From NCBI GenBank assembly GCA_023415335.1, contig JAEZLD010000048.1, positions 1-64,000 on the forward strand: a stretch of DNA of 64,000 bases. Direction: 5' to 3'. Of the stretch, positions 5,934-50,101 are shown piece after piece. The DNA comes from Bacillota bacterium (GTDB taxonomy: Bacteria; Bacillota; Clostridia; Clostridiales; Caloramatoraceae). Within the stretch, counting starts at the first letter, position 1. Each line of letters starts with the position of its first letter. A model generated the notes under the pieces. That model had not been told where the DNA came from. It saw nothing but the letters and a program-made list of their open reading frames with translations, and did not search any database. Made by a program: the position numbers and the translations under genes.

Positions 5934-6305
5934 TCATTGGGTAATCTCCAGATTACCTTCAGCTTCAGCCACCTTCCGGATGAATCCAAACAAAAGCAGG
6001 AGCGACAGCACCATGCATATGGCTTCTTCTGCCGGCTGGGCATGGATAAGACCATAATAGCCCCAAATTCGGTTAAAAATCAGCAGGAATGGAATATAGA
6101 GAACCAGCTGCCTCACAGCGGTGATTGTAAATGCATACATTGCCTTTCCTATGGCATCGAAGGTATTTCTCGCAATGGAGACCGTCCCAACAAAAGGGAG
6201 CATCAGCATAAATGCACGGAGTGTTTTAGCTCCTATTGAGATAACCTCCTCTGACTCTGAGAAGATACCTATAAGGCCAGGGGCAAATACGCCTGATATA
6301 CCCAT
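5934..6305 (-). pseudogene. C-terminal fragment of a MATE-family efflux transporter (truncated)
   Basis: Only 123 aa are present, covering the last 3-4 TM helices of a MATE-like protein. The fragment is overlapped by the flavodoxin ORF upstream and has no N-terminal part. Confidence 0.5.
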
Positions 6306-18188: not shown

Positions 18189-18404
18189 CCTCCGAAATCA
18201 TTTTAGATAAATTGTTGCAACCATTATCTTTGAGAAAATTCTAACATTTATTTTTTTTTATGTATATCCGAAAAAAAATAAAAAAGGTGGAAAATACAAA
18301 AATTTTGTCTTTTTCTGTTGTATCTGTTCACTAGCGTGTAGTATCTTCTCATTATAGATGCAGGCAGGGTTATCATGGATGTGTCCGGAGGCGAGAAATG
18401 CTAA

Positions 18405-18434
18405 CAGCCTTCTATGAAAAAACATAGAAGGCTG
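18405..18434. terminator. Hairpin terminator, copy 2 of the duplicated 35-nt element
   Basis: It carries the same cagccttctatgaaaaaacatagaaggctg + TTTTAT as the copy at 9656-9686 (35/36 nt identical). Confidence 0.55.
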
Positions 18435-18580
18435 TTTTATAATTATTAAAGGTTCACCTAATCAGTATATTAAATTTGCCTACTAAATCAGAAGCCTCCG
18501 CTGATGCTCCTTCAAAAGACATCAGGTCAAGCTACTTGTTAATGAGTCAGGAGAAACATTACAGTAAAGAACAGGTCACC

Positions 18581-19608
18581 TTATTCCAAGCTGCAAACCG
18601 CTTCCCGAAGCATTCCCGCATATTCCGCCTTCACATGCTGGGGACCTTTAATCTTTACCTTTCCACCAAAACCAAACACCCAACTATAAAAGATGTGACT
18701 TACTGCAATATCTACAACGGCTCTAAATGAGTTCATGTCGTTTGCGTATGTAGTAACATCCTCGCCAAGCCGGTCAATAATGGAATCCATAACACTGTTG
18801 TCGCATATCAATTCAACTTCTTCATGCTCGCTGTTAAACATTAGGAATGTTATATAATGTATTCCTCAATATCAAATCCCTCTGGGGCAGGAGTTCCGTC
18901 TTCTTTCAAGATAACCGGACACTTAGCAATTAGGTCTACTCTAAAGCACCCAAGACGCTGTTTATTTTCGTAAACACCAATCATATAATAACAAGCACCA
19001 TTCCACACAAGATGAAGGGGCGTAATTGTGTACGGCTCACCATTGTGTTTCAATTTTTTCTCTTTTCATACATTGTATTGAAAATACTGTAAGGAGATTT
19101 TCTTGTTCGCGTTGATTGCATCGTTAATGGCATCAACAATAATGTAGATTCTTTCATTTCCAACCTTAATGCGGCCTTCACAGCTTACATTCCTTTTAAG
19201 ACTAGCAGCAGCATAAGATCCAGCCATAGAACTAAGTTTCTCAGCCAGTTCTTTGCTTTTGCTTGAATTTATGAATTTTGACGATTCAACAGCGTCAATC
19301 AATAATTTTAACTCTGGAATATCAAATTTTCGTCCAAATAGATTGTATCTATTCTGCGTAGATTTAACCTCTTCGATTTCAAACCCCAACTGCCTGAGCA
19401 GTTCAATCTCAGCTTTGATTGTTTGACGATGTGATCTGATTCCATATTTCTCCCCTAAAATTCGAATCAGCTGAGCAGTTGTAAGAAAATGCTCTTCGTC
19501 TATTTGCTCACATAAAATTTTTGCCAAGTACAACGGCCTTAATTTTGCGTTGTTATCCATTTGCCCACCTTCAATACAGATAAACATTTTACAGGTTGTA
19601 TCTGACAC
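18581..19608 (-). pseudogene. HTH-WYL-WCX transcriptional regulator (BrxR/CapW/PafBC-like), disrupted by an in-frame TGA and a frameshift
   Basis: It is split into three ORFs. The first is the HTH part 19608-19066. The second is the WYL part 19053-18850, with 'ITPLHLVWNGACYYMIGVYENKQRLGCFRVDLI'. The third is the WCX-like C-terminus 18841-18581, with 'FGFGGKVKIKGPQHVKAEY'. ORF1 and ORF2 are in the same frame across a TGA. ORF2 and ORF3 are in different frames. Confidence 0.65.
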
Positions 19609-19828
19609 ACGGGGAGTATCTTATGTTTGTAAAACCAGCGGCTTCAAACTCTCAAACTATATCTAAATAGTTTTCTCCAGTAAGTCCCCAAGAGGATGCT
19701 GGAATTTAAGCCTCTCCAGTATGATTGTTCGTGTTTCCGCAGCCAACTAAAGAAAATAGCAAAGCCAATGCCAAACACAAAGATATAACCCTTCTCACTT
19801 TGCCCACCTCATAGAATCAACGCAGATA

Positions 19829-20890
19829 TTATGCGTTGATTAATTCAGAGAAATCTCTGCAATTTTGAACATTTGAGACCTGAATTTCCACATTCAATCC
19901 CCCAGAGGATCGCAAAAACACCTGCCCATATAAGCATATTGGAAGCTGTCTGTTGTTGCTGTAACGGCGATCTGGCGTTCCGTTCTTATTAACAAACTGC
20001 CATGTATGTCCTACAACTTGAGCATCCTTCGGAACTCCTTCACTTTCAACAAATCTAACTTCAGAAGTTTGGACTCTAAAATCACTATAATCAATCATTC
20101 CCACTTTGCTTCCGCGTACAATGAAGACTTTATCAGGAAGAATAATCAACATTTCCTTCTTCAGTTTGATCTGTACAGTATCAATATTTGTATTGATGTA
20201 GAAGGGACGCCCTTTTTCGATTTGGCAAGGAATACGATTTAGGCTTCTCCCTGCACCAGCATGTAATTTCGTGTTCGAATTAAACTGCTCAGAAGTAATC
20301 TGCCACTCTTTTTTTCCTTCAGCCAGTAATTGCCATGCGCCAATTCTTCTGTCATGCTCATCTTTTGCTTCTGCATCAAAGGAATATTCCAATTCAACAC
20401 GGCCCGACTTGTGAGCCATGACCTTTAGAACAATACCAAGAACCAAAAGCAAGAAAAACACCGGCTGCGCAAATCCTAATAGAGAAAGCCAGATCAGCGC
20501 CGTACTCCATTTATTGAGTTTAATTGTTTTTTCTATAGTTTGAGAAATATTACCAGTCTCTGCAGCCTTAAATTGCTCAATACTTGCGCTTTCGATCGGA
20601 ATTTCTGCCTCATAATTGCTTGAAGGGTTGTAGTTTCCGGGATTGTAATTATTTCCTGAAGAGTTACCGTATCCTTGTGATCCGCCTCTTCTCCTTGAAT
20701 TTCGCTTTCCGGATTCATCAACATAAGATATTCCTGTTCCCGGAATAGAATATGTTCTTCTTGTTTTTCCGCTTGCTGTTTTTGTAATACGGTATCCTTT
20801 GGTACCCCAACTATATCCAATACCTGATTTGCTGAGATTGATCCTAAATCCCCCTCCAAGATTTATACTTTTTCTATATCTAAAGCCCAT
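19829..20890 (-). CDS. DUF4236-type N-terminal domain + single TM + C-terminal domain of unknown function
   Basis: The N-terminus 'MGFRYRKSINLGGGFRINLSKSGIGYSWGTKGYRI' matches the DUF4236 pattern. It is followed by a Gly/Asn/Tyr-rich linker and a hydrophobic helix 'LIWLSLLGFAQPVFFLLLVLGIVL'. Confidence 0.6.
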   Translation of the reverse strand: MGFRYRKSINLGGGFRINLSKSGIGYSWGTKGYRITKTASGKTRRTYSIPGTGISYVDESGKRNSRRRGGSQGYGNSSGNNYNPGNYNPSSNYEAEIPIESASIEQFKAAETGNISQTIEKTIKLNKWSTALIWLSLLGFAQPVFFLLLVLGIVLKVMAHKSGRVELEYSFDAEAKDEHDRRIGAWQLLAEGKKEWQITSEQFNSNTKLHAGAGRSLNRIPCQIEKGRPFYINTNIDTVQIKLKKEMLIILPDKVFIVRGSKVGMIDYSDFRVQTSEVRFVESEGVPKDAQVVGHTWQFVNKNGTPDRRYSNNRQLPICLYGQVFLRSSGGLNVEIQVSNVQNCRDFSELINA

Positions 20891-21625
20891 TCAAATAACC
20901 TCCTCAACTTCAATAAACACTACGCTAAGATCATCGTTTGAACCGTTTTTTAGGGCTTCTTCTATTATCTTATTGCACTTTTCTGTTGCTGCCATGTTTT
21001 GGATTAATGTGGCTTCCAGAAAATCAAGAGAAACATACTCATGAACACCATCTGAGGTGAGCAGATATTTTTTCCCTTTTGTAATAGATGAAACAGAGAT
21101 CTTTGCGGCGTAGTTTTCATTACCTCCACCTAAGCAACTAGTAATCTCATTCTTGTTACATAGTTCAGCTTCCTCATATCGTTGCATGCTACAAAGGTAG
21201 TTATAAACCGTATGATCCGATGTCAGCTGTTTTAAGTAATCGCCTTGCAACACATAAGCCCTGGTATTTCCCACATGAATAAGTTGATATTTCGTTTTGA
21301 AAAACAGGATCCCTGTTAGCGTCGTAGCCATATCCGAAAACTTGGGCTCCTGCTTTGCCTTTTCTAAAAGTGCAGTATTAATATCTAGGATCTCCGAACG
21401 AATATCAATACTCATGTCTATTGCAAGATCCCTTAAGGCATTTACAACAAAGTTTGATGCAACGGCACCACCGGCATTACCCCCAACACCGTCTGCAACA
21501 CAAACGATTCCACTTTGAACAGTGTCCAAAACCTGGCAACTATCCACAACAACATCTTTCCCAACAAGAACCGCGTCTTCGCTGGCTAATTTGTTTTTCC
21601 CAGCCTTTGTAACTACGCAGATCAT
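20891..21625 (-). CDS. PP2C-family Ser/Thr protein phosphatase
   Basis: It has the motifs 'VADGVGGNAGG', 'TSDGV' and 'NGSNDDLSVV'. Confidence 0.85.
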   Translation of the reverse strand: MICVVTKAGKNKLASEDAVLVGKDVVVDSCQVLDTVQSGIVCVADGVGGNAGGAVASNFVVNALRDLAIDMSIDIRSEILDINTALLEKAKQEPKFSDMATTLTGILFFKTKYQLIHVGNTRAYVLQGDYLKQLTSDHTVYNYLCSMQRYEEAELCNKNEITSCLGGGNENYAAKISVSSITKGKKYLLTSDGVHEYVSLDFLEATLIQNMAATEKCNKIIEEALKNGSNDDLSVVFIEVEEVI

Positions 21626-23517
21626 TAAATCGCCTCTTTAGTGCAGGTTAAAGCATACGGCATATTTTCAGCATCTATATCTTCAATCCTGATTCTGGCA
21701 TCGCCTTTCACGCCATGGTCAAACATATATCTTGCCAAAGGATTGATGAGTAAGCTTTCAACAAAGTTTCCGATTCCTCGACCACCGTTTGCAAGATTGC
21801 CCAACGCCTTTTCTTCCAAAATCTTCATAGCCTTTTCCGACAAAGTCAGCTCAATGTGTTTCTCTGTAACCAGGTTCCTAATAAGCTTATTAACCTGTGC
21901 CTCAAGGATAATCTTTGCTACAGGAGGACGAATGAAGTCAAAGACCACAATGTTTTCACCAATTCTATTCAGAATCTCAGGGCGTCCCAGCTCAAGTTTG
22001 AAATAATCCTCAATAGCCTGTCTTACGCGAGTTTGGACTTCTGAATATTCCATCTCCGCTGTAACATTGGGTTCTCTTACGCCAAGATTATTTCTTGTGT
22101 AAATTCCAAGGTTGCTAGTGAAGATTATGATACATTCAGAAAAATAAACCGTATTACCCTGGCCGTCCGTCATTCTACCATCTTCCAAGATTTGCAGGAA
22201 TTTATCGAAGATAGACGGATGTGCCTTCTCAATTTCATCAAACAGGAGGATAGAGAAAGGATTTTCCTTAACTGCGTTTGTTAGCTGGCCTCCTGCTTCA
22301 TATCCAACATATCCTGGAGGCGCTCCCAGCAATTTTTGGTCGCTGTGACTCTGGCTGTATTCACTCATATCAAATCGAATACAGCAGCTCTCGTCTCCAA
22401 ACAGTTTCTCGGCCAGCGTCTTTGCGGTTTCCGTTTTACCAGTACCAGTCGGTCCTGCAAAGAAAAGAATTCCCTTGGGCTTGGCGTGGGAAGAGCTCTG
22501 TAATCCAGCCATGCCGGTAACAGCTCGTTTTACAACATCCAGTGTTTTTATGATAGCAAAATCCTGACCTTTTACGCGCTTTTGGAAATCTGCGTGAGCT
22601 GTCTTTAATTCATTCTCATCAAGGGCATCCCAAGGATTCTCTTTAATTCCATAACGGTATAAATCAATTACCGATGCCATCTGTCTAATTCTGGTCTTTT
22701 CATTTTTACAAAGTCTTCTTAGCCCATTGATCTCAGTAAAGCTAAACCCTTCAGTAAGGCCTACAAATTTATCTTGAATCTTATCAAGTTCTTCCGGATG
22801 TTCTTGATAATAAGGAAAATCTTCATCATATACATCTGCAGCGAAAAAGCTCATGAAATTTTCTCCTTTAATGAGCCGTTCGCGTTCTTCTTTGGAAGGG
22901 GTTCCAAGGCTTATGGTCTTCACATTGGGATTATCCAAATAGAACCAAGCAGGAATATCGTTGACCTTATTAACGATCATTACAACAATATTTTTTAATG
23001 TCCCGTTTTCTGTACGGACATCCTTTCCTTCCATAGAAGATAGGATTAAGTTTGTGAAACTATCTACTTCAGATTGTTCTATTCCATCGGGAGTCGTAAT
23101 GTATCTTGAAGCAAGATTCATAACAATTGCAGTAGACTGTTTATTTTGATTTACAGCAGTTCTAATTATAGAAGTTGCTGAATTACTCTTTCCCTTAAAA
23201 TCACATCTTATGTATTTACCTTCAAGTTTTGCGTTTGCAATCTCAGCAAAAGACTCAACATGACCTTCCTCACAAGAATTATAAAATCCCTGCATGCTGT
23301 CAAAAAAGACAATCGATTGATATCCAAGGTCCTTAAAATAATAGTGCAGGTACTCAGGCAAGCGCAAAATGCTGCCTTTAGAAATGCTTCCCTCTGTAGG
23401 GTATTGATACACATCGAGAACATTGCCTTCGAGAATAATCAAGGGTTTGATTCTGCTAAAAATACCCAGTTCTCTGTGCCATTTTGGAATATATTCTTCC
23501 ATTTTCCTGCCTCCCAC
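21625..23517 (-). CDS. AAA+ ATPase with a ClpA/ClpB D2-like C-terminal module and a divergent ~330-aa N-terminal region
   Basis: It has Walker A 'GPTGTGKTETAKTLA', 'LLFDEIEKAH' and the sensor region 'IIIFTSNLG'. The N-terminal half is unrecognised. Confidence 0.8.
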   Translation of the reverse strand: MGGRKMEEYIPKWHRELGIFSRIKPLIILEGNVLDVYQYPTEGSISKGSILRLPEYLHYYFKDLGYQSIVFFDSMQGFYNSCEEGHVESFAEIANAKLEGKYIRCDFKGKSNSATSIIRTAVNQNKQSTAIVMNLASRYITTPDGIEQSEVDSFTNLILSSMEGKDVRTENGTLKNIVVMIVNKVNDIPAWFYLDNPNVKTISLGTPSKEERERLIKGENFMSFFAADVYDEDFPYYQEHPEELDKIQDKFVGLTEGFSFTEINGLRRLCKNEKTRIRQMASVIDLYRYGIKENPWDALDENELKTAHADFQKRVKGQDFAIIKTLDVVKRAVTGMAGLQSSSHAKPKGILFFAGPTGTGKTETAKTLAEKLFGDESCCIRFDMSEYSQSHSDQKLLGAPPGYVGYEAGGQLTNAVKENPFSILLFDEIEKAHPSIFDKFLQILEDGRMTDGQGNTVYFSECIIIFTSNLGIYTRNNLGVREPNVTAEMEYSEVQTRVRQAIEDYFKLELGRPEILNRIGENIVVFDFIRPPVAKIILEAQVNKLIRNLVTEKHIELTLSEKAMKILEEKALGNLANGGRGIGNFVESLLINPLARYMFDHGVKGDARIRIEDIDAENMPYALTCTKEAI

Positions 23518-23593
23518 TCTTTGTTCTACACGCTATTGATTACTGTTGATTTTTTCTTGAAATATAGTATAACCTTAATCTGGGCAATTCATT

Positions 23594-24175
23594 TTACCCA
23601 CGATATGGGGTAAAGCCTGGCTTATGTATCCCCACAGAAACAATACCGTCTGTCGTCGTAAAATTTTGAATTCTGTTCCCATTTTCCCGTAAATACCAAT
23701 CATACAATCCGCGGTATTTCTCTTTTAAGATGTGAATCCTTTGATTGGTAGATCCACGCAAAACCAGACCAGCATTCTTTTCTTCAATATATGGTCCATC
23801 AACAAGAACTGCAATATAAGGCAGAATATCATTTGCTAGTGAGTTTGTTGCTGTGAATTCCTCGCGGGTATATCCAGTATAGACTAAAATGTCCTCAGAA
23901 ATATCATGAAGTTTCTTTAATAAATCAAGCAATTCTGATGCTTGATCCAGTGGTTCACCGCCAGAAATAGTAAATCCATCAATTGTATGGTCTGTAGCGA
24001 GTCTCTTAATCAGTTCTAAAAGCCTATCAACTGATATCTCATATTCTTCTTTCTGATTCCACAACTCCGGATTACTACAACCTTTGCAGGCGCGTTTACA
24101 ACCACAGAGCCATATACCAACTCTATTACCAGGACCCAAAACTTTTACGGGATACAATATTCTTGCTACATTCAT
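23594..24175 (-). CDS. Anaerobic ribonucleotide reductase-activating protein (NrdG)-like radical-SAM activase, orphan
   Basis: The match to NrdG runs along its whole length: 'KVLGPGNRVGIWLCGCKRACKGCSNPELW' (CxxxCxxC), 'ISGGEPL', 'VYTGYT', 'VLVDGPYIEEKNAGLVLRGSTNQRI'. No glycyl-radical enzyme is nearby. Confidence 0.85.
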   Translation of the reverse strand: MNVARILYPVKVLGPGNRVGIWLCGCKRACKGCSNPELWNQKEEYEISVDRLLELIKRLATDHTIDGFTISGGEPLDQASELLDLLKKLHDISEDILVYTGYTREEFTATNSLANDILPYIAVLVDGPYIEEKNAGLVLRGSTNQRIHILKEKYRGLYDWYLRENGNRIQNFTTTDGIVSVGIHKPGFTPYRG

Positions 24176-24783
24176 CTGTCCACCTTGAAAGTCAAATAAG
24201 CAGCAAGTTCTTGTCTCTCGCCATTAATCACTTTGCCACCAAGGCCAATCTCATCGCCTTCTTGCAATGCGGTCGGTACATCATTGTCAATGGGCTTATC
24301 GTTTACAAATGTTCTGTTTGTGGCACTCAGGTTTTCAATAAAAACCTTTCCAGCAACTATCGTCAATTTTGCGTGCTGACGACTAACATATGAACGCTGT
24401 TTCAAATAGTCCTTCAATTCGGCTTCCCGGCCTATAATCACAACTGGCGTATCAAAAGATTGAGAAAAATCACCACTAATTGAATCTAAAGAATATGAAA
24501 ACTTCTTCTCTTCATGTTTCGTAGGCCGAATATCTGAAATATCCTCTCCACATGTTTTACATTTTCGAGCTTGTGGAGGATTAATCGCACCACATTCACA
24601 AACTCTCGCCAAAGTTCCTTGCGATGCTGGTGGTTCTGTGGGAAGTTCCTTTTGAGCCTCTTCAAGAGCAGCATCCACAATACGAACTCCTGTTAGATCA
24701 CATTCACACTTTCGACACTCTAGCAAAACAGGCAGGTTGTTCTCACCACAGGAAGGGCAAACTTTATATTTCTCCAAAGCCAT
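24172..24783 (-). CDS. Double zinc-ribbon + FHA domain protein
   Basis: It has CPSCG...CRKCEC and CECG...CKTC ribbons. The C-terminal FHA region shows 'VIIGREAE...SRQHAKLTIVAGKVFIENLSATNRTFVND'. Confidence 0.8.
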   Translation of the reverse strand: MALEKYKVCPSCGENNLPVLLECRKCECDLTGVRIVDAALEEAQKELPTEPPASQGTLARVCECGAINPPQARKCKTCGEDISDIRPTKHEEKKFSYSLDSISGDFSQSFDTPVVIIGREAELKDYLKQRSYVSRQHAKLTIVAGKVFIENLSATNRTFVNDKPIDNDVPTALQEGDEIGLGGKVINGERQELAAYLTFKVDR

Positions 24784-26150
24784 TACTCATTCTCCCTTCG
24801 CATTGTTTTTGTGGCAGAACGCTTTTTCCTTCTTCTCGTTGCCATTTCAGTAATTTGTTTACTACTGTGAATTTGATAATCGTTTACATTAATGATTGCT
24901 GCATATTCTGCAGCAGGAGGCGACATTTCAATACGCGTTCCCACAATGACGCCCTTTTCCTTTAGTCTTCTTTCAATCTCTGCAAACTCACCGCAAAAGG
25001 TTTCCATATCTTCCGTTAATTCTCCCACCTCTTCTTCATTGGGGAGCCGGTCTTCATGAGCTATGCCACCAAGTTCCATTGCTATTTGACCATCCGAAGA
25101 AAAGGTGACATTGACGGCAGTACCTTCATCAAAAGAATACAATTCATTTCTAAATTTCTTTCCGCTTTTCTTCTTTACTTCGCGGGAACCCAACAGTTCA
25201 TATCCCATTTCGGAAAGAACCTCTTCCACACAATCACTGATATATTCCTGTTCGCGCTGTTTGACCGCTAACAACTCTATCCTTTCAACTTCTTTTTCTA
25301 TTGTTTCAATCTCTGCAGATCTAAACAAATCAACATTGGACTGGACTCCGGTCAATTGACAAAGCACCTCATATCTATCAAGGAGATCTTTACGCAACTT
25401 TTCTTCTTCTTTTTTCTGCTCCTTGATAAGAGAACTTTTCGCTTCGAGAGCTCTAATAGTTAAACTAGAGAAGGTATGTAGATAATCTATGGACACAATA
25501 CGCCCAAGCGAATTCATTGCCTCCCCAATCTCTTCTTTCAAAGAATTAGGACATTCTTTATCAAGAAACATTGCCTTCAACTTTGCTTCCAGCTCAGTTC
25601 GCTCCGTCTCCAAAGCATCCACTTCAACTGGAGCGCTGAAGTCCAAATAAACATATGCTGCAAGGTCCTCCGCTATACTATCTTGTGCCGTATTTTCAAG
25701 TTTTTCCACAACAACAGTAGCTTGCTGGATTGGTTTCTCTATCTCTTTTTGTAGAGCTTCAACATTCTGCTTAATCTTCCTGATCGCAGCAAGCTGTTGT
25801 TTTTTCTCAGCAAGAGCTTCCTCGCTAATTTGATATTTTTCACTCAAATGAGGTCGATGAGATTGAAGATCCATAAGCAATTCGGTTGACTCCTTCTCTA
25901 TGACACCCAGCATTTCTTGCAAGGACGCCACACAGTTACCATCAACCTCACAGCGCTCATTCAAAAGTTTTAGCCGTGTGAGCAACTCCTCGATAGTTCC
26001 TCTACATCCTAATATGTATGAAACACCTAACTCAATTTGATTAGCACACGATATGCTTTGCTGTTCACAGCGCATTTGTCCGTTGACATTAGCCCGTGCC
26101 CAGCCAGATAATTCATAAACAGATATTTTAGGACCACTCATCCAAATCAC
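24783..26150 (-). CDS. Coiled-coil protein of unknown function
   Basis: It has long heptad-rich E/K/L segments and is translationally coupled on both sides. Confidence 0.55.
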   Translation of the reverse strand: MIWMSGPKISVYELSGWARANVNGQMRCEQQSISCANQIELGVSYILGCRGTIEELLTRLKLLNERCEVDGNCVASLQEMLGVIEKESTELLMDLQSHRPHLSEKYQISEEALAEKKQQLAAIRKIKQNVEALQKEIEKPIQQATVVVEKLENTAQDSIAEDLAAYVYLDFSAPVEVDALETERTELEAKLKAMFLDKECPNSLKEEIGEAMNSLGRIVSIDYLHTFSSLTIRALEAKSSLIKEQKKEEEKLRKDLLDRYEVLCQLTGVQSNVDLFRSAEIETIEKEVERIELLAVKQREQEYISDCVEEVLSEMGYELLGSREVKKKSGKKFRNELYSFDEGTAVNVTFSSDGQIAMELGGIAHEDRLPNEEEVGELTEDMETFCGEFAEIERRLKEKGVIVGTRIEMSPPAAEYAAIINVNDYQIHSSKQITEMATRRRKKRSATKTMRRENE

Positions 26151-26160
26151 CTCAACTCAA

Positions 26161-27852
26161 CTATTCATTCATCAACATTCGCCACTTATCAATTTCTTTC
26201 TTCTTGCCAATCGCAATTAGCCATGTCTCAAGCTGCACATCTAAATTGCCATCATAATCAACAAGTCTATGACATAAGGTCTCAAATTTATCGAAAGACA
26301 AATCCAAACACTCTCTCATGTATCCTGCCAGTTCGCCAACTGTACGGAACTGCTGGTTATCCAGCAGCAATAATTTTTGTCCTGACAAGGTATATGCCAT
26401 ATAATAATAGGTGCGAAGCAAATCCGAATGTTTGCCTTTCTCTAATACATAAGAATCTTCAATGGCTGCCGTAGCCTTTTTAAGAGCTTCATTCTTTGGA
26501 GACACCTGCATTACATACTGAGTTAAAAGTTTTTCATTCAAAACGCTTTCATAATACTTGTACTGAGATTTATCGTGTTTCCAAAGCTTTTCGAGAACAT
26601 CTCGGCCAAATGCGGGAAGACTTTCATACACTTCACCCTTCCAATAGAAGCCCTTCAATTTCGGGTTCAAGCGATACAGCAGTTTCCAAAAAATAATATC
26701 ATCTTTTCCATTAGAGCGGCTGGCTTCCTCTTCAGCTTCCATGCATTTTTTCGCTGCCTCTTGATCAAAAACTCGAAAATGTGCTGATAAAAGGCCTCGG
26801 AAAAGATGTTTCTTTCCTTCGTTCCAGTTCTTTGCCAGAGACGCAGCAAGCCCTTCTATGCTGGTTATTTCTTCGTTTAGGAAATGGTAAATAGGCATAT
26901 TTCCTTTGCCTACATTTCCAATTCCTTCACCAGGGATGATAAGGCTTTCACCGTTGATCCACTTTACAACCTCTTCGTATGTCCAGCGGCGATTTGGATT
27001 GTTTTTGTTTTTGCGATAACTGATATCATAATATGTCAATGCAGAAATAAAATCTTGCAAAAGCACGGGCATGCTTTCCGGAAACGGTATTCTTTGAACG
27101 GATACATATTGTTCAATCTCTTCCGGTTGCATATTTGCATATGGAGTATATCCACAAAAAAGCTCAAACAGCGTTATGCCAAAAGAGTAATAGTCAGATC
27201 CCTCATAAAAAATATTCTTAAAAGTCTCTGGTGCTGAATACTCAGGTGTCATGCCTGTTTTCGTCACAAGAAGAGTATGTTTATCATCAACAGCGGAACT
27301 GATTCCAAAATCGATAATGGACACAGTTTTACCATCATCATTTAACATAATATTAGATGGTTTAAGATCTTTGTGAATAATTCCTGCCTGATGGATCGCA
27401 TGTAGCCCCTCATTAATGTTGGGAATAATACTTTCAACCAATTCCTCATAGTTAAATGTTTTTCCTTGCAAACTTCCATTTTTGTAGTAAGGAATAATTT
27501 CTACAGGAAAACCATTATGTTTTGCTGTTTCATGAAGCTTTGCAACATAAGGTGAATTGATGCTCAGTAACGCCTTAATCACATCTTCCTTGATTGCGAA
27601 TTTCCTCTTGTAAATCTTCGCAATATACTTTTTCCCATCATTCGAGCAAATATACAAATCAGCTTCTCCAGAGGCAACCTCCAATCGTTCTTCAATTGTA
27701 TACTTGTCGCAAATTATTGTTCCGCGATCAATCAAATCCTCTTGTCTACTGATAGAGTCGATTTGATTGCCATACTGCTGGACGAGCTCTGAATTAATCG
27801 CAGTCGGTGCTGATTCTATGATATTAGGATTAATTACTGTACGATTATCCAC
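26161..27852 (-). CDS. Hanks-type Ser/Thr protein kinase with a ~270-aa C-terminal domain of unknown function
   Basis: It has 'YIAKIYK' (beta3 Lys), 'HKDLKPSNIML', 'DFGIS' and 'TPEYSAPE'. Confidence 0.85.
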   Translation of the reverse strand: MDNRTVINPNIIESAPTAINSELVQQYGNQIDSISRQEDLIDRGTIICDKYTIEERLEVASGEADLYICSNDGKKYIAKIYKRKFAIKEDVIKALLSINSPYVAKLHETAKHNGFPVEIIPYYKNGSLQGKTFNYEELVESIIPNINEGLHAIHQAGIIHKDLKPSNIMLNDDGKTVSIIDFGISSAVDDKHTLLVTKTGMTPEYSAPETFKNIFYEGSDYYSFGITLFELFCGYTPYANMQPEEIEQYVSVQRIPFPESMPVLLQDFISALTYYDISYRKNKNNPNRRWTYEEVVKWINGESLIIPGEGIGNVGKGNMPIYHFLNEEITSIEGLAASLAKNWNEGKKHLFRGLLSAHFRVFDQEAAKKCMEAEEEASRSNGKDDIIFWKLLYRLNPKLKGFYWKGEVYESLPAFGRDVLEKLWKHDKSQYKYYESVLNEKLLTQYVMQVSPKNEALKKATAAIEDSYVLEKGKHSDLLRTYYYMAYTLSGQKLLLLDNQQFRTVGELAGYMRECLDLSFDKFETLCHRLVDYDGNLDVQLETWLIAIGKKKEIDKWRMLMNE

Positions 27853-27854
27853 CT

Positions 27855-30800
27855 TTAAACACCTCCAACCACAGTAACCTTATCGTCGATTACATTAATT
27901 TTCTCATTTGCAATCAGTTTTTCAAGAGCTCTTGCCATTGCTACATTGATTTTCTCACCGCGTCTTGAATATCCAATTGCCCTTGTTGTTTCTTCAATGA
28001 GTGCTTTTGTGCTAAGTCCAAATGTGTTAGAAGCAACAGCTATCATAGCAAGCCCCAATTCATCTGTAGAAATAAGGTTAATCGCTCTTTGATTGTATCC
28101 ATCCTCAGGAATACGCACTTTGAGATTATCAAAACCTTTAAGGGTGACAAAATCATCTTTAATCTCCAGCCGTTGTCTGCCCGCTGTGGTATTCATTGCC
28201 ATATCAACCATGCGACGCACCAGACTCGTTACCTTTTGATTACCAAAAGCACCCGCCATTCTCTGGTACAACAAATCCTTATGTATCGGCTGCTCAATAC
28301 CGACAATATAAACTATCCTTGTTAATACTTCGGTCATATTGTCGTATGTGTTTGGCATTGGTGCATCCCACCAATTGGCCTCCACATAGCGTTCAAATCC
28401 ATACGGATTATCCTCGTCGCAATTAATGCCACCACGGTTTTGTGTACCTTTATAAGATTCCTCCGTAACTTCTTCAACCATACTAGACAAATCTTCTTGC
28501 AATAATTTCTTCTGCTCAGGTTCTTCAATTTTAACAGCAGTATGTTCGGATGCATCCTGTATAAACGAGAGGAGTTTAGCTCCTTCCACCTCGGGATTAA
28601 TATACCACTCTGCAGACCATACTCTGTACATATTCCAACCCATGGAATTCAGCACAGATCTTCTCAGATGATCTCTATCTCGTGCTGTATGAGCAGAAAC
28701 ATAAGAGTAACCATCACACTCAATACCTGCAATATATTTGTCTTCATCGTTACGATCCACAACGGCAATATCAATACGATAACCAGAACAACCAACATAC
28801 TTTTTGATAGTATATCCATTCTTTTCTACAAATTCCCCAACCATATCGACAAAGCGATCCTGCCCTTGTACATTTCTAGACGAGGCTAACGCAACTGCGC
28901 CATTCATAGCAAACTCAATGTACGAGCGTAACATTCTGATGCCTTCTGATTCTGTTCTGGAAAGATCAATATCGGAAGGAAGAATAGAACTAATAAGCTT
29001 TATGTTTCGCTTTGCTCTAGTAATCGCAACATTTAGTCTTCGCTCACCGCCTTGGTGTCCAAGAGGGCCAAATCGCATGTGCATCGGGCGCCCAGATTCC
29101 TTTTGATCCTTTGTTTGCGCATAACAAATACTAAAGAAAATCGTGTCGCGTTCATCGCCCTGAACATTTTCCAGATTCTTTACAAAGAACTCTTCTTCAT
29201 TACCTTCCTTGAAGAAGAATTCATATTCCGGATTTTGCTCTCTAAACCGCTGCACTTCCAAAGAAATCTGTTGCTGTTGCTTTTCGCTGAAGGCAATGAT
29301 TCCCAGGGATCTGTCCGGATGCTTATCAATATGCTTCTTGATTAATTCAACACACCGCTTAGCCTCTGCAACATTACAGTTTCTACCGCCGCCTTCATAA
29401 TATCCATCTTCAACATATTCGAACTCAACACCACAATCCTCTTCGTGTTCCACGCTACTTGGGAAAGTGACCAATTCATTCTTGTATATCTCTTGATTAG
29501 AAAAGGCAATGAGATGCTCGTGCTTGCTTCTATAATGCCAAAGCAATGTACGATTTGGCAGCACACTTGCGGTTTCTTCCAGAATAGAATCGTAAACAAT
29601 ATCTTCGTATTCATCATCAGAATCAAAAGCGTCGGAATCATTGCTTGTACTCGTAGCAAAGAAATTTGTAGGAGGCAACTGTTTTGTATCACCAGCAATG
29701 ATAACCTGCTTTCCTCTGAAAATAGCACCAATTGCATCTTGTGGGAATATCTGTGAAGCCTCATCAAAAATAACCATATCAAATTGGTAGGAGTCTGCTT
29801 CAAGGAAATAAGCCACAGACAAAGGGGACATCATCAAACATGGTTTTAATGTCAGCAACAAATTGGGAATTGATCTAAAGAGCATTCTCAAAGGCATAAT
29901 GCGACGCTTTTTTCCCATTTCTCTTTGAAGCACCTGCAACTCATCTTTTGCTGTTGTGACTCTGTTGGTATCAGGAAATCTGCTAATTATTTTCTCGCGG
30001 ATTCTCATCTGTGCAACAGATAGCTGCTTAGTATCCAATTCCACAAAGCGTTCCAGCTTCGCCTCTTGAGTTCTTCTACGGAAACTTTGGACAGCCGGAG
30101 ATTTATCCATTGCCATAGTAATCCAGAGTTTATAAAACTGTTTTTCAAAACAAGCCTTAATTTCACTTGCCGGAACTACACCTTCGGAAATCAAATCAAC
30201 ATATTTCTTTAGTCCTGCATTAACACACTCAGCAGTTGTTTCTCGATAATCAATCCACTGGTCCAAAGAATTGACATTGCTTCGGCAAGCAGAAACTTTC
30301 TCATTGATTCTTGCAATTTCACTTTGTTGCAAGGAAGCTCCATATTCAAACAACGAAGCAAAGTAGCTAATAGGCTCTTCTACTGGAGCAAGAAGAAGTC
30401 TTATATCTGTAGTTGCAGCTTCCAGATTGTTTCTTTCCGCTTCACTATTACAGTATGTACGGATAAATCCGGGCGCAGCAATGCTGAAGCTGTTGTTTTC
30501 AAACAAAGAATTCACAGCTTCAATATCATCAATTAGTTCTGCCCACTTAGTGTCAATTCCAGCATAGCGCTCTCCAAACAAAAACACTAAGCTGTCTTCA
30601 TTTTGTGCCAGTGACAGTCTATAGTTTCTTGCACTATTAGCCGTATTAATGTTTTCAACAAGCTCTGCCATTGCATCTTCGCAGGTGGCAAATCTCCGTA
30701 TATATTCAACGGAAGAATTCAGTCCATTAGTATGCTTGCTCAAGAACAGAATCCTCTGTAGTATTTCGTCATTCGTAGTTGCAAAAACAGGATCCTTAAA

Positions 30801-33800
30801 GTCTGAGGAAATATTATTGAGTTTAACAGAAAGTGAATCTAGCCTTTCCTCTAAAAGTACACTTACAGCAGATGCAATCTGTTCTAATTGGTCAGAATGA
30901 ACATCCTTATTGCTTAAGATATTAATAAGAACTTCGGGCACTCCAGTTTCTCCAAAGCAATTCTTCAACTTTCGGACCATATCAAAGGCATCTAACAAGC
31001 TTTGCCACGGGGTATCCACATCATCATAACGTGAACCCAAAACCACATCAAAACGATGCTTATTTTCTTCAAACCATAGCTGTTCTGCTTTGAATGCCTT
31101 GATTTGCTGTAGCAGGGAAATAATCATTGCATCATTGATTTTTCCACCGATTGTTCTGCAAACAGCTCGAATAGTTTTAATGTCCTCTTTGTATGCTGCT
31201 TTGAATATCTTAAAGAAATTCACATACTCTGTTTTGAAACGCAACAGCATTCCGTCAACATCGATTTTGAAGACATCTTCTTCCCATTGATCCAAAATAG
31301 CTTTTTTGATACCCAGGTATGTTTGTGCATGGGACTGTCCTTGGGTAATCAATTTTTTAGCCTCGGCTGCTATCTCGTCATTAAACCATTCACGCTTAAC
31401 GGTATTTGTGTTAAGCACAGCCCTGGCAACAGCTCCTGTCTCTTTGATTGCATTGAAGTTTTCACCAAAATTGATACCTAACATAGATTTTATACATACA
31501 TAAGCGTTATACACTTCATTCCATTCTTGTTCAAGTGAATTTGCGTATACTTTAAGCTGGCTAATGCCTCCAATAATGTCTGCTTCGGAAGACTTTTTAT
31601 AGTTACCGCACTTTCTGATGTTGTCTAGTGATTCTCGGACAGAATCTATCCAAGCCTGTAAATCTTCATCCAAAATACTCTCCACAAACAAAGCTTTCAC
31701 TTTGTCAAGGCATGCCAAATACTGCTGCTGTTTTTCTTTTTCTTCTACAGCAACAGTGCGAAGTTTATGACGCCGCTGGACCTGTGCCCATTCCTCAGGG
31801 AACAACGGAGCGACAACAAACATTTCCAAAAACTCCGCCATCTTTTTGGCCCCACTAAGGGTACGTTCTCCAGACAGGCCGAGACGGGCATGAATTTCAT
31901 GTAGAGTGTCATTAAGCTTTGCAAGCTGGTCTTCGAGCAAGTGGGTTTTTTGTATAAAACTGTTTTTTAAGCTTTGACTTGCTTGGGTAATTGTTGTTCC
32001 GTTCCACGGATGTTCTTCTAGCTTCATTCCCAGCGCTAAAAGAGCTTTTTCCATATTTGCAACACAATACATCATGGCATTATATTGGGAAGAAGTCACA
32101 GAATGAATATCGTCAATTTCAAACTGGATTTCCGGAACAGAATCCAAAATAGAATATTTACCAAAGGCGGTATATAAGCTTTCTCCCAATGGTTCAATTT
32201 CACTGTGGAGCTCTTCTGCATATGCATTAAGATGTTTGCGATCATGGAAAAGTTCATCCAGCTCTATAACAACAGAATCCTTAACTCTCTGGTGCGGAAG
32301 TTTTAGGTTGGCTCCAATGTTTTCCAGAATATCTTTTTTGTTTGCTTTGTGGCTATGGAGAGCTAAGCAGAAATCCTCCAGTTGCACTTCAGTTAATCTC
32401 TTCAAAACAACTTGAAGGGCGGCGGCCTTTTCAGAAACAAACAAGATTTTCTTTCCATCAGCCAATCCTTCGGCAATAATATTAGTAATTGTCTGACTCT
32501 TGCCTGTACCAGGAGGGCCTTGCATAACGAAGCTAACCCCCATCTTAGATAGTAAAATTGCTTCTTGCTGACTTGAGTCTGCGTTAACCACTTGATACCA
32601 ATCGCGGGGTGAAACATCATCAAAGGCAAAATTCTGATATGATGCAGGAATTTGATTTGCTGAAGATACATCTCCCGCGATAGCCCTCAAAGTAGGACTA
32701 CTCATCATTCGGGCACGGTGATTGTTGAGATCATGGTACATGCTGATCTTCAAAAAGGACAACAAACCCATGCTCACTTCACGGATAATTTTCCATCCTC
32801 GCTTGTCAACAATCTCTTCAATCTGCTGCAAATATTGCTGGATTGATGACTCATCCTTCAACTCAAATGTAGGCAAATCTAAACCATACTGCTCGTTGAA
32901 CAAATAGTCCAGCGTAGGATTTACCTCAATTTCGTCATCATACCGACTCAGTGTGTACGGAGAGTGTATGGATTCTAATCCAAGTGTTACCGGCATCATC
33001 AGTAATGGAGATTTGAGCCATGGAGAAGAATCCTTGCTATTTTCTTTCCACTCGACAAAACCAAATGATATGTACAAAATGTTTGTACCTTGTTCATCCT
33101 TGGCTAACTTAGCTTTATTTCTTATATTGCGTAGTGTTCTTTGCCTTTCGACAATAGAGCCTTCCGTTTTAATGTCTCCAACATGAACAGGGAGAGGATA
33201 AGACAATGTTTCCAGCAACGAAAGAACAGAAAATGTTCTTAAATCCGAATCCTTATCAATCGGTCTTTGGAATGTAAGTTCCTCTTCACCAATAGCCAAT
33301 CTGTTAAACAGTTCAGAAAAACCCGGTTCAATAATCCGCAAAGTGGAAAGTTTTGTCTCTCGATAATTAATCATTCGATTGCGCTTACCAAGATCCAATA
33401 GCTGATGCTTCCAAAAATCAATTCGTTTATCTAATGTTTCCAGATCATCTGCTCTAACATGGATACCATCCATTGCATCAGGAAGTTTTTTTCCATCAAA
33501 AGCATTTTCAACATGCTCAACACTTGCTTCTCCCCTCTGAGTTGACTCCACCGTTGACGTTATTGTTTCAACTGGAGAATCATTTCTTACCACTCGTCCC
33601 TCTGGAGCAAAGTTTTCTGTTTTGCCTGCTTCGACAGCAGCCTGCTGCGTCTGAGTAGTAGACGCAGGAACTGGAGTAGATTCAACAGCTCGAACCGGAA
33701 CCTGGTTTTGTTGTGCTCTCACTTCGTTTATCCTCTTTGCACTCAAATAATTCTCTTTGGCAGCATCGTTGTAAGATGCTGGGTTGGATGAATACCGGCT

Positions 33801-34013
33801 GAACGCTGATACCCATTGTGTATTCCCCAAAGTAGAGCAACGCGTAAAAGCGTTGTTGCAAACAGGACAAGTATGAGGTTTTGCCAAATTTATATAACTG
33901 TTATTAGAAAATCCATTAGCAATAATTTGTCTACTTATTCTTGCACAAATAGGGCAAATGACCGTAGGAACTCTTGAACCGTTTGAACAATTTAAGATGA
34001 TTAAATCCACCAT
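27855..34013 (-). CDS. Giant (2052 aa) zinc-ribbon + DUF4011 + SF1 (Upf1/DNA2-like) helicase + DUF3320 + DUF559/Vsr-like PD-(D/E)xK nuclease protein (Hhe-like)
   Basis: It has Walker A 'VMQGPPGTGKSQTITNII' and motif II 'VIFDEASQ...GDTKQLPP'. The C-terminal nuclease region shows 'YRIDIAVVDRNDEDKYIAGIECDGYSYVSAHTARDRDH'. The N-terminus carries CPIC...CPVC ribbons. Confidence 0.85.
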   Translation of the reverse strand: MVDLIILNCSNGSRVPTVICPICARISRQIIANGFSNNSYINLAKPHTCPVCNNAFTRCSTLGNTQWVSAFSRYSSNPASYNDAAKENYLSAKRINEVRAQQNQVPVRAVESTPVPASTTQTQQAAVEAGKTENFAPEGRVVRNDSPVETITSTVESTQRGEASVEHVENAFDGKKLPDAMDGIHVRADDLETLDKRIDFWKHQLLDLGKRNRMINYRETKLSTLRIIEPGFSELFNRLAIGEEELTFQRPIDKDSDLRTFSVLSLLETLSYPLPVHVGDIKTEGSIVERQRTLRNIRNKAKLAKDEQGTNILYISFGFVEWKENSKDSSPWLKSPLLMMPVTLGLESIHSPYTLSRYDDEIEVNPTLDYLFNEQYGLDLPTFELKDESSIQQYLQQIEEIVDKRGWKIIREVSMGLLSFLKISMYHDLNNHRARMMSSPTLRAIAGDVSSANQIPASYQNFAFDDVSPRDWYQVVNADSSQQEAILLSKMGVSFVMQGPPGTGKSQTITNIIAEGLADGKKILFVSEKAAALQVVLKRLTEVQLEDFCLALHSHKANKKDILENIGANLKLPHQRVKDSVVIELDELFHDRKHLNAYAEELHSEIEPLGESLYTAFGKYSILDSVPEIQFEIDDIHSVTSSQYNAMMYCVANMEKALLALGMKLEEHPWNGTTITQASQSLKNSFIQKTHLLEDQLAKLNDTLHEIHARLGLSGERTLSGAKKMAEFLEMFVVAPLFPEEWAQVQRRHKLRTVAVEEKEKQQQYLACLDKVKALFVESILDEDLQAWIDSVRESLDNIRKCGNYKKSSEADIIGGISQLKVYANSLEQEWNEVYNAYVCIKSMLGINFGENFNAIKETGAVARAVLNTNTVKREWFNDEIAAEAKKLITQGQSHAQTYLGIKKAILDQWEEDVFKIDVDGMLLRFKTEYVNFFKIFKAAYKEDIKTIRAVCRTIGGKINDAMIISLLQQIKAFKAEQLWFEENKHRFDVVLGSRYDDVDTPWQSLLDAFDMVRKLKNCFGETGVPEVLINILSNKDVHSDQLEQIASAVSVLLEERLDSLSVKLNNISSDFKDPVFATTNDEILQRILFLSKHTNGLNSSVEYIRRFATCEDAMAELVENINTANSARNYRLSLAQNEDSLVFLFGERYAGIDTKWAELIDDIEAVNSLFENNSFSIAAPGFIRTYCNSEAERNNLEAATTDIRLLLAPVEEPISYFASLFEYGASLQQSEIARINEKVSACRSNVNSLDQWIDYRETTAECVNAGLKKYVDLISEGVVPASEIKACFEKQFYKLWITMAMDKSPAVQSFRRRTQEAKLERFVELDTKQLSVAQMRIREKIISRFPDTNRVTTAKDELQVLQREMGKKRRIMPLRMLFRSIPNLLLTLKPCLMMSPLSVAYFLEADSYQFDMVIFDEASQIFPQDAIGAIFRGKQVIIAGDTKQLPPTNFFATSTSNDSDAFDSDDEYEDIVYDSILEETASVLPNRTLLWHYRSKHEHLIAFSNQEIYKNELVTFPSSVEHEEDCGVEFEYVEDGYYEGGGRNCNVAEAKRCVELIKKHIDKHPDRSLGIIAFSEKQQQQISLEVQRFREQNPEYEFFFKEGNEEEFFVKNLENVQGDERDTIFFSICYAQTKDQKESGRPMHMRFGPLGHQGGERRLNVAITRAKRNIKLISSILPSDIDLSRTESEGIRMLRSYIEFAMNGAVALASSRNVQGQDRFVDMVGEFVEKNGYTIKKYVGCSGYRIDIAVVDRNDEDKYIAGIECDGYSYVSAHTARDRDHLRRSVLNSMGWNMYRVWSAEWYINPEVEGAKLLSFIQDASEHTAVKIEEPEQKKLLQEDLSSMVEEVTEESYKGTQNRGGINCDEDNPYGFERYVEANWWDAPMPNTYDNMTEVLTRIVYIVGIEQPIHKDLLYQRMAGAFGNQKVTSLVRRMVDMAMNTTAGRQRLEIKDDFVTLKGFDNLKVRIPEDGYNQRAINLISTDELGLAMIAVASNTFGLSTKALIEETTRAIGYSRRGEKINVAMARALEKLIANEKINVIDDKVTVVGGV

Positions 34014-34070
34014 ATTAATACCTCATCACCTCTAAAAAAATGGTTCTTATTGTTGTAATCAATCAGAAAA

Positions 34071-34277
34071 CTAATCGTTCTCTATGACTTCCATCAAGTC
34101 TCCTAGGTCACAATGAAAAATCTTACAAAGGCGAAGCATGACTTCCATTGAAACGACGCGGTCTTGATTAAGTTTTGTCATAGTATATTGCGAAAGTTCA
34201 GCCGCCTTCGCAAGTTCACTTTTTTTCATTTTGTTAGTTATCATAATAGTCCACAGTTTATCATATCTAACTATCAT
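34071..34277 (-). CDS. XRE-family HTH transcriptional regulator (68 aa; internal Met start preferred)
   Basis: 'MITNKMKKSELAKAAELSQYTMTKLNQDRVVSMEVMLRLCKIF' is a Cro/CI-type HTH. An AGGAGG lies upstream of the ATG at 34277. Confidence 0.7.
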   Translation of the reverse strand: MIVRYDKLWTIMITNKMKKSELAKAAELSQYTMTKLNQDRVVSMEVMLRLCKIFHCDLGDLMEVIEND

Positions 34278-34332
34278 GCTCTTCCTCCTATATGTAAAAT
34301 TTAATCTACTTTCAGCTAGATACAAAAATACA

Positions 34333-34347
34333 TGATATAGTATATCA
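34333..34347. promoter_or_regulatory. Perfect palindrome TGATATA-G-TATATCA in the XRE promoter region (candidate operator)
   Basis: It is a 7-bp inverted repeat ~55 nt upstream of the XRE start. Confidence 0.35.
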
Positions 34348-34623
34348 CAGTTCTCGTAAAGCTTCAATGTATTTTATCGAACTAACAAGAATTACACTAG
34401 AATGTGTCGATTTAAATCATCACCTAAAGTGAAAACATCCCACACCAGGCCGCGAAAACCCAGTGCGGGGTGCAAGGTCTTAATATGCCGGGATACCGTA
34501 TCCCAGGATCTCATAATGTCCGACCCCATAGCTGCGCTGTGCACAGGAATCGCCGGAGTCGCCCTCAGCGGTGTAAACTCAACAGTTATCGATAGTTTTA
34601 GCTTCAGTACAAAATAAAAATAG

Positions 34624-34662
34624 GCAAAAAAATAGAACCCCATGAGTTCTCGACTCATAGGG
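34624..34662 (-). terminator. Rho-independent terminator downstream of lysS
   Basis: The minus strand reads CCCTATGAGT-cgaga-ACTCATGGGG followed by TTCTATTTTTTT. Confidence 0.5.
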
Positions 34663-34833
34663 CTCTCACTGCATTTAGTTTTCATTTAGTGCAAGCGATT
34701 GCGATTTGCATGTTTTTGTCGTGAATACCGGCGACAAAATGGAGAGGTTTGGAGAAAAAATTGGATAGTCACCACACCATATCGCAAAATCAATCGCAAT
34801 AAACCGTTATAAGGGGACCTGCAGGGACTTAAT

Positions 34834-49543: not shown

Positions 49544-49597
49544 AAAGCTACCACCTTTCATGAACATATTATATCACATAAAATGGAAGGTGTTTTT

Positions 49598-50098: not shown

Positions 50099-50101
50099 TG
50101 G

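Follow-up and report, generated by a model that had tools for sequence, protein, structure and literature searches.

Do the nine genes that run head-to-tail on the minus strand from position 34367 to position 19829 of a clostridial contig (JAEZLD010000048.1, assembly GCA_023415335.1, Caloramatoraceae) form one system and, if so, what is the system for? They lie in a stretch of 64,000 nucleotides (nt; positions 1 to 64,000 of the contig, hereafter the window) and were first noticed in a reading of the letters and their open reading frames (ORFs), which took them for an undescribed defence or stress island. The nine ORFs are present where that sequence-only reading had placed them, and all of its domain assignments were recovered by Pfam and NCBIfam. 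As will be shown below, the block is a single conserved cassette, scattered by horizontal transfer, rather than a chance juxtaposition of genes, and its conserved unit is a set of six genes, from a Ser/Thr kinase to a PP2C phosphatase, which in the window follows a gene for a very large helicase-nuclease. A role of the cassette in defence is plausible, and we lean, with modest confidence, towards a phospho-regulated helicase-nuclease system directed against mobile elements.

Recurrence of the gene order

Co-occurrence of these genes in other genomes had been proposed as a check and was borne out, as 62 non-redundant loci share the gene order, with protein identities of 30-85%. The neighbourhoods stem from Pelotomaculum schinkii, from human-gut and other metagenomes, and from the source contigs; 57 of the 62 loci were obtained by scanning a single genome for each species (185,579 species genomes) with peptide patterns, so that their number is a lower bound. 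The order in these neighbourhoods is helicase, (PC4), kinase, coiled-coil protein, FHA protein, radical-SAM protein, AAA+ ATPase, PP2C, (NADAR), DUF4236 protein and (metallo-beta-lactamase-fold [MBL] protein, WYL regulator), and presence and order were counted from a tblastn matrix and a gene-string analysis. Every locus long enough (40/40) had all six genes from kinase to PP2C, arranged in the same order on a single strand. Directly upstream of this module the helicase gene was found in 33 of the 43 evaluable loci, which belong to several families of Clostridia and to Paenibacillus. The junctions coiled-coil/FHA, FHA/radical-SAM and AAA+/PP2C measure 20 nt or less in 84-96% of loci, and the helicase stop and the kinase start lie no more than 20 nt apart in 17 of 36 pairs, the other pairs inspected having only the small PC4 gene in between. 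Seen from the helicase side, the module accompanied close homologues in all three of the contexts sampled (of 120 listed), one of them in Paenibacillus sp. FSL R10-2734.

The carriers of the 57 loci are almost all Clostridia (Lachnospiraceae, Oscillospiraceae, Ruminococcus, Christensenella, Desulfosporosinus, Faecousia), together with Erysipelotrichaceae and one bin labelled Bacteroidaceae. The distribution is patchy, the flanks are unrelated between genomes, and a complete copy is found on a 44-kb plasmid record of Aristaeella lactis (NZ_CP069422.1, locus L154). On that plasmid (18469-22841), the genes after PP2C encode a DUF6273 protein and another protein kinase, the second, with 952 amino acids (aa), and a DUF4236 gene lies upstream of the helicase gene in divergent orientation. 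Among otherwise identical metagenome copies, L002 differs from L003 and L004 by an insertion sequence element (rve transposase, L002 12834-13978) between the radical-SAM and AAA+ genes, which points to a recent transposition into the operon. Another locus, L063, contains parts of two cassettes in opposite orientation.

The coiled-coil protein served as a marker for the module. A word-indexed search returned 356 homologues, all of full length, and an exhaustive profile search gave 712 clusters at 50% identity in public data (326 at E <= 1e-30), most of them from gut and rumen Clostridia. Among the matches listed, those of at least about 410 aa span essentially the whole profile and none carries an added domain. 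No relative of the marker was found in IMG/VR viral contigs or GenBank phages.

Predicted functions of the encoded proteins

Motif conservation was assessed in alignments of 26-55 orthologues per protein; at most positions of the motifs checked (kinase, FHA, radical-SAM, AAA+, PP2C, helicase and nuclease) conservation reaches 95% or more, and at the others it does not fall below 70%. The Hanks-type Ser/Thr kinase (26161..27852, 563 aa, Pkinase; this and the other cassette genes are on the minus strand) retains the K, HKD, DFG and APE motifs and ends in a domain of about 270 aa without known relative, for which no solved relative was found by sequence. Its N-terminal tail (residues 1-60 in the window; orthologues L001-L068) carries two to five tandem T-x-[ILV]-N repeats, with the consensus N-A-T-V-I-N-P-x-[IL]. 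Counted over 53 kinases, 139 occurrences of T-x-[ILV]-N fall in 3524 tail residues versus 10 in the other 26642, an approximately 100-fold enrichment. FHA domains bind phosphothreonine and are selective at the +3 position. Because the FHA domain reads both the phosphothreonine and its +3 residue, the repeats are likely candidate docking sites for the co-encoded FHA protein (24172..24783, 203 aa), which combines a double zinc ribbon (DZR) with an FHA domain and whose phosphothreonine-binding residues (GR, SRxH, TNxTxVN) are intact in the window and conserved across orthologues. The third partner is an Stp1-like PP2C Ser/Thr phosphatase (20891..21625, 244 aa, PP2C_2) with conserved metal-binding motifs. 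From these motifs, the trio is predicted to be competent in catalysis and phospho-binding, which supports the phospho-switch part of the earlier proposal that kinase, FHA protein and PP2C act as an infection sensor; the defence part of that proposal we only infer.

The helicase-nuclease (27855..34013, 2052 aa) was characterised by Pfam, PADLOC, NCBIfam and motif conservation. From the N-terminus it consists of a zinc ribbon, a serine/threonine-rich (S/T-rich) linker, DUF4011 (113 bits), a UPF1-like superfamily 1 (SF1) helicase with a large variable insert (AAA_11 and AAA_12, 64 bits each), the Vsr/DUF559-like nuclease MTES_1575 (PF18741, 103 bits) and a DUF3320-like tail with a weak match. The zinc ribbon has four cysteines (CPIC at residue 20, CPVC at residue 49). 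Among orthologues, the N-terminal 200 residues (zinc ribbon and S/T-rich linker) and the central insert vary, and the Walker A/B motifs (GPPGTGKSQT, DEASQ), the helicase motifs and the nuclease residues D...IECDG...RDRD are conserved across the 33 aligned. The nearest solved relative is IGHMBP2, a UPF1-like helicase. PADLOC models for PDC-S37 and Hhe match with 1400 and 562 bits, and the NCBIfam models for "anti-phage protein ProA" and Hhe with 1303 bits (versus a cutoff of 1500) and 882 bits (versus 2000). On these profile matches the protein is assigned to the catalogued anti-phage family ProA / PDC-S37 / Hhe; close homologues bear only the NCBI label "DUF4011 domain-containing protein". Distant relatives, with about 30% identity, occur on plasmids of Vibrio and Salinibacter, where they stand alone, beside DUF262/GmrSD-like genes or beside CRISPR-Cas, and PADLOC lists the family as a single-gene candidate ("S37").

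The coiled-coil protein (24783..26150, 452-455 aa) has no Pfam, PADLOC or NCBIfam family. It starts with an invariant MSGPKIS motif, and AlphaFold2 models it as long helices followed by a C-terminal alpha/beta domain of four strands and a helix (mean predicted local distance difference test score 81). This C-terminal domain is conserved and shows a weak resemblance to the KA1 fold. A kinase-regulating KA1-like domain encoded beside the kinase would be an attractive interpretation of the model; Foldseek does not support the resemblance, nor did it return a significant match for the full model, and a profile search against PDB sequences found nothing.

The AAA+ ATPase (21625..23517, 625-630 aa, AAA_2 plus ClpB_D2-small) is the best-conserved protein of the cassette, with 63-85% identity, versus 30-45% for the coiled-coil protein, which is the least conserved. 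Its C-terminal half is a ClpB/ClpV-D2-like module with conserved Walker A/B, sensor, GYVG pore loop and D2-small domain (AAA_2 167 bits; match to the D2 of Thermus thermophilus ClpB at E = 6e-61). The N-terminal 300 aa or so are conserved, and neither Pfam nor PDB yielded a match for them. That this region might be a degenerate D1 AAA ring was considered and found unsupported, the hhalign probability against D2 being 0.3%. A partnership with ClpP was also rejected, as the protein has no conserved IGF-type docking loop, the position of that loop is variable and the ClpP gene that lies beside the kinase in one locus is not a conserved neighbour. As a separate observation, a second AAA+ protein, ClpC/ClpA-like and with a genuine IGF loop, is encoded downstream of the cassette in L066 (15437-17713).

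Between the FHA and AAA+ genes lies the gene of the radical-SAM protein (23594..24175, 193 aa, Fer4_12/Radical_SAM). It scores 111 bits with Fer4_12 and 118.3 bits with the NrdG model TIGR02491, under the equivalog cutoff of 126.1, and its CX3CX2C cluster motif (CGC...C.GCSNPELW) and the GG.P motif for binding of S-adenosylmethionine are conserved in 55 sequences. By these scores and motifs it is clearly of the NrdG/activase type; no solved relative was found by sequence. No gene for a glycyl-radical enzyme (NrdD, PFL or similar) was found in the cassette. A substrate among the cassette proteins themselves was searched for with R-[IVTLA]-[CSAGT]-G-[YWF] and rejected, the matches being sporadic, unconserved and confined to a few helicases.

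The remaining genes are more variable. The DUF4236 protein (19829..20890, 353 aa) has a DUF4236 head, a linker rich in G, N and S, a hydrophobic segment and a C-terminal domain that varies and for which no solved relative was found by sequence; it matches phrog_17982 over its full length. It is an optional member, lying directly downstream in 22 of 41 loci and absent from the other 19. In 12 loci, both helicase-bearing and helicase-less (cluster c0, e.g., L036 12938-14032), the radical-SAM and AAA+ genes have between them a gene for a BspA-type leucine-rich repeat (LRR) protein of about 365 aa, which could bind a ligand or act as a sensor subunit. Proteins of no recognised kind are encoded between the kinase and coiled-coil genes in some loci (the two scanned have no Pfam family), and one locus contains an AAA_23/AAA_15 ATPase.

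The block in the window and its flanks

Junctions in the window were read from the sequence. The overlaps that had been claimed for coiled-coil/FHA (TAATG, 1 nt), FHA/radical-SAM (ATGA, 4 nt) and AAA+/PP2C (TAATG, 1 nt) stand, and the one claimed for helicase and kinase does not, since the helicase stop and the kinase start are separated by a gap of 2 nt. PP2C and DUF4236 meet at TGAATG without gap, and 76-91 nt lie between the radical-SAM and AAA+ genes. Some true starts are likely downstream of the ORF starts, giving products of 68 aa for the XRE regulator, 452 aa for the coiled-coil protein (MSGPK...) and 625 aa for the AAA+ ATPase. The XRE (Cro/C1-type helix-turn-helix) regulator (34071..34367, HTH_26; likely product from 34277) has promoter-like hexamers at 34367-34332, and a small helix-turn-helix gene also precedes the helicase in other loci. 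On the coding strand within the block, no terminator-like hairpin of more than 7 pairs was found.

The island is longer than the block first delimited and extends from the terminators of lysS (~34.6 kb) to a hairpin at 18.4 kb. Its upstream edge is marked by two terminator-like minus-strand hairpins 3' of lysS (34666-34634 and 34469-34439, whose stems count 14 and 13 pairs and run into stretches of T), and its downstream edge by a palindromic terminator-like hairpin of 14 pairs (18403..18436) between a WYL remnant and an ABC-transporter operon. A 97-aa ORF (34392-34685) that overlaps both lysS-side hairpins has no Pfam or PHROG match and is probably not a gene; metagenome gene callers report an 88-aa product at this position.

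Between the DUF4236 gene and the downstream edge, two further minus-strand remnants are found. The first 60 codons of an MBL-fold gene are left at 19619..19798, intact copies of which lie 3' of DUF4236 in related cassettes, and a WYL-WCX regulator pseudogene occupies 18581..19608. The regulator had been called decayed, rightly so, as its two pieces, 83-85% identical to the intact WYL gene of a related cassette, are interrupted by one in-frame stop and one frameshift. In the relative L011, whose coiled-coil protein is 75% identical, the four genes after DUF4236 encode, in turn, an MBL-fold protein, a product of 235 aa, a WYL-WCX regulator and a product of 435 aa; only traces of MBL (19619-19798) and WYL (18587-19560) remain in the window. 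The truncated MBL gene and the WYL pseudogene are thus decayed accessory genes of the same cassette.

The ORFs scanned in the two flanks are all backbone genes, including spoVT, yabQ, spoIIE, tilS, hpt, ftsH, birA, coaX, dus, greA and lysS on one side, and those of an ABC transporter and a two-component system on the other. The sequence-only reading had also placed an integrase and a tRNA scar in the region; no integrase domain was detected among the ORFs scanned, and the only tRNAs, at 50099-50356, lie 16 kb off and show no damage. As for presence or absence of the block in close relatives, in 48 loci with a related ABC-transporter operon (72-84% identity to the downstream one) neither the cassette nor lysS lies upstream, and an exact-sequence look-up of LysS retrieved only the same two metagenome contigs, so that these comparisons yielded no clean insertion site.

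Elsewhere in the window, next to the tRNA cluster (Met/Met/Leu, 50099-50356), a protein of the "23S rRNA intervening-sequence protein" family, of the four-helix-bundle type, is encoded at 49193-49567. The region 1177-4937 may hold a further small module for conflict or stress, in which the gene of a second WYL-domain protein (413 aa, 3696-4937) comes before those of a 303-aa protein without family and an SPFH/Band-7 protein (1177-2280). A 519-aa ORF without Pfam family (7358-8917) is flanked by a flavodoxin/MatE-fragment region and a phosphopentomutase-like metalloenzyme gene, and a 123-aa ORF (5934-6305), which matches the end of the MatE transporter domain only, resembles a gene fragment.

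Possible roles of the cassette and its relation to known systems

In the reading we favour, a horizontally transferred multi-gene system against mobile genetic elements would have been inserted just downstream of lysS and would work in two separable layers. The effector would be the DUF4011/UPF1-like SF1 helicase fused to the Vsr-like nuclease, and the control module would comprise the six products, namely kinase, coiled-coil protein, zinc-ribbon-FHA adaptor, radical-SAM enzyme, ClpB-D2-like AAA+ unfoldase and PP2C. In uninfected cells, PP2C would hold the system dephosphorylated, until a cue from infection or DNA damage switches the kinase on; the kinase would then phosphorylate the T-x-[ILV]-N repeats of its own N-terminal tail, and probably other components too. 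On these phosphothreonines the FHA adaptor might dock and build a complex on the coiled-coil scaffold, which the pore-loop unfoldase would remodel, thereby licensing or resetting the helicase-nuclease for the degradation of invading (or cellular) nucleic acid. The radical-SAM enzyme would be an obligatory member, the DUF4236, PC4, NADAR, MBL and LRR proteins optional accessories, and transcription would be controlled by the XRE regulator and, in intact copies, by the WYL regulator.

Several observations weigh against this reading. The helicase gene is absent from 10 of the 43 evaluable loci, and helicase-less copies adjoin SufBD, tandem GNAT or sugar-metabolism genes, without an obvious nuclease. 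The helicase is therefore not the only possible effector, and the module may have a non-defence function or use another effector. To these points may be added that the helicase scores under both NCBIfam equivalog cutoffs (ProA and Hhe), that the reading gives the radical-SAM protein no explained role, with the glycyl-radical motif unconserved in every cassette protein, and that the order of the mechanistic steps is drawn by analogy. The window copy itself may be partly degenerate, given its decayed WYL and MBL genes.

In an alternative that we consider unlikely, the helicase would be a self-sufficient single-gene defence of the Hhe/ProA/PDC-S37 type and the module a separate system that shares its insertion hotspot and transcript. 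The helicase-less loci, the distant helicase relatives that stand alone and the filing of the family by PADLOC as a single-gene candidate would all fit such independent neighbours. However, in 33 of 43 evaluable loci, across several clostridial families and Paenibacillus, the helicase gene immediately precedes the module, it is within 20 nt of the kinase gene or, in the other pairs inspected, separated from it by PC4 only, all three sampled close homologues have the module beside them, and in the window neither promoter nor terminator was found between the two genes. A non-immune role, in which the module would be a signalling or protein-quality-control device of spore-forming Firmicutes (triggered perhaps by stress, by damage to DNA or by cues from development) and the helicase a recruited DNA-repair or processing enzyme, seems to us quite improbable. 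It is consistent with the housekeeping-looking neighbours (SufBD, GNAT, sugar enzymes) of helicase-less copies, with carriers that are nearly all Clostridia and Bacilli, with ClpB-type AAA+ and Stp1-type PP2C being classic stress and signalling proteins, and with prkA, yhbH or spoVR within 10 kb in two loci. In these two unrelated genomes, spoVR lies 7-10 kb upstream of the cassette (L071 661-2052, L072 1-2996), with prkA and yhbH/DUF444 also present in L072, and this proximity could be a coincidence or reflect a shared insertion region. Such a device is harder to reconcile with the patchy distribution (57 loci in 185,579 species genomes, at least), the unrelated flanks, the plasmid-borne copy, the insertion sequence in one copy and the gene decay in the window copy, nor would it account for the conflict-type accessories (NADAR, MBL, WYL, LRR, OLD/AAA_15-like ATPase, PC4) or for the defence-model matches among neighbouring genes. 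Helicase-bearing loci often adjoin defence or mobile-element genes (TaqI, resolvase, GmrSD, Endonuclease_NS), and four of ten downstream neighbours scanned gave PADLOC matches (Fic/PDC-S04 367 bits, MkoA-like 169 bits, and weaker SspH-like and TmtA-like ones).

Kinase/PP2C/FHA sets are also known to control type VI secretion, of whose machinery the AAA+ protein ClpV is a part, and the block might be what is left of a secretion or envelope apparatus, or a satellite of one, with such phospho-regulation (PpkA/PppA/Fha1/ClpV) and with DUF4236 as membrane component. Matches to TssH/ClpV (209 bits), the type VI FHA protein TagH (32 bits) and, weakly, the cytoplasmic FHA family of YscD speak for it; these are domain-level matches, those to TssH and TagH far under the family cutoffs of 885 and 120 bits, and DUF4236 is optional. 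Consistent embedding in such an apparatus had been named beforehand as a counter-case, and no sheath, tube, baseplate, membrane-complex or type VII secretion genes were found in any of the more than 60 loci. This explanation is largely refuted by gene content, and we regard it as highly improbable. A bolder proposal, tentative and in our view rather unlikely to hold, is that the six-gene core is an autonomous and so far unrecognised immune or stress machine in which threonine phosphorylation gates an unfoldase and a glycyl-radical-type activase, with the helicase as one of several interchangeable add-ons that serve as effectors or sensors. If so, radical chemistry would be part of the response, by radical installation, by (in)activation of a protein such as anaerobic ribonucleotide reductase, or by cleavage of S-adenosylmethionine.

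If the cassette does serve defence, as in the phospho-regulated helicase-nuclease system that we favour, a helicase-nuclease of the Hhe/ProA type would stand under a eukaryote-like phosphothreonine switch, made of a kinase, an FHA reader and a PP2C eraser, together with an AAA+ remodeller, and a glycyl-radical-type activase would join the enzymology of conflict systems. We know of no characterised defence system that uses such an activase. Kinase/phosphatase add-ons are a known theme, and the defence systems of gut and rumen Clostridia have seen little experimental study. Cultured carriers exist, namely Aristaeella lactis WTE2008, Paenibacillus sp. FSL R10-2734 (CP150170), Blautia sp. HCP3S3_G3, Mediterraneibacter agrestimuris DSM 111629, Lachnospiraceae bacterium A4 and Pelotomaculum schinkii, and the T-x-[ILV]-N repeats offer a concrete and cheap biochemical handle.

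The system had been called undescribed. This does not apply to its helicase, which is already catalogued, and it appears to hold for the kinase-to-PP2C module, which has no PADLOC or NCBIfam model and for which no paper was found; the core module thus looks undescribed. In PADLOC v2 and NCBIfam (June 2026) the six module proteins obtain only generic or partial matches. A full-text literature search returned no paper combining DUF4011 with FHA, PP2C, radical SAM or DUF4236, nothing on PDC-S37 and no primary source for ProA, and the cassette is not described in Kaur et al. 2020 (PMC7159879).

The closest parallel in layout is the TerY-P triad (TerY vWA, PP2C and Ser/Thr kinase), which acts as a stand-alone defence or is attached to the UPF1-like CnuH in type II/III-A CoCoNuT (PMC11090510). 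As there, a kinase/PP2C switch is coupled at the gene level to an SF1 helicase-nuclease of the UPF1 clade in a predicted defence context, and a zinc ribbon occurs within the signalling layer. The cassette differs in that no vWA match was found in any of its proteins, the third partner being the FHA protein, which bears the zinc ribbons; in that its kinase has a C-terminal domain without known relative instead of a zinc ribbon or OB fold; and in that it adds the coiled-coil protein, the AAA+ unfoldase and the radical-SAM enzyme and lacks a McrBC-type GTPase. With the threonine-phosphorylation pathway of type VI secretion (PpkA, PppA, Fha1, ClpV) the cassette shares a Hanks kinase, a PP2C, an FHA adaptor and a pore-loop ClpB/ClpV-like AAA+ protein. 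It differs from that pathway in its Firmicutes carriers and in the lack of secretion structural genes in any locus, and in its AAA+ protein only one ATPase ring is recognisable and the N-terminal domain is unrelated. A ClpB-type AAA+ core is likewise present in the defence candidates Dodola (DolB, 74 bits) and PDC-M37B (109 bits), but these matches span the ATPase core only (residues 279-470) and the partner genes differ. With the eukaryotic checkpoint and nonsense-mediated decay pathways (Rad53/Chk2 FHA-kinase plus PP2C, and the SMG1-UPF1 cycle) the sequence homology is limited to generic domains.

For the effector, the nearest comparison is with Hhe, which Gao et al. in 2020 reportedly described as a DUF4011 helicase-nuclease defence, and with PDC-S37 and ProA. 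The window protein has the same domains in the same order (DUF4011, UPF1-like SF1 helicase, Vsr/MTES_1575 nuclease and DUF3320-like tail), and is set apart by its S/T-rich N-terminus with an extra zinc ribbon and by a large insert that varies. In contrast to the relatives that stand alone, it is followed, 2 nt after its stop, by the six-gene module, with which it forms one apparent transcription unit.

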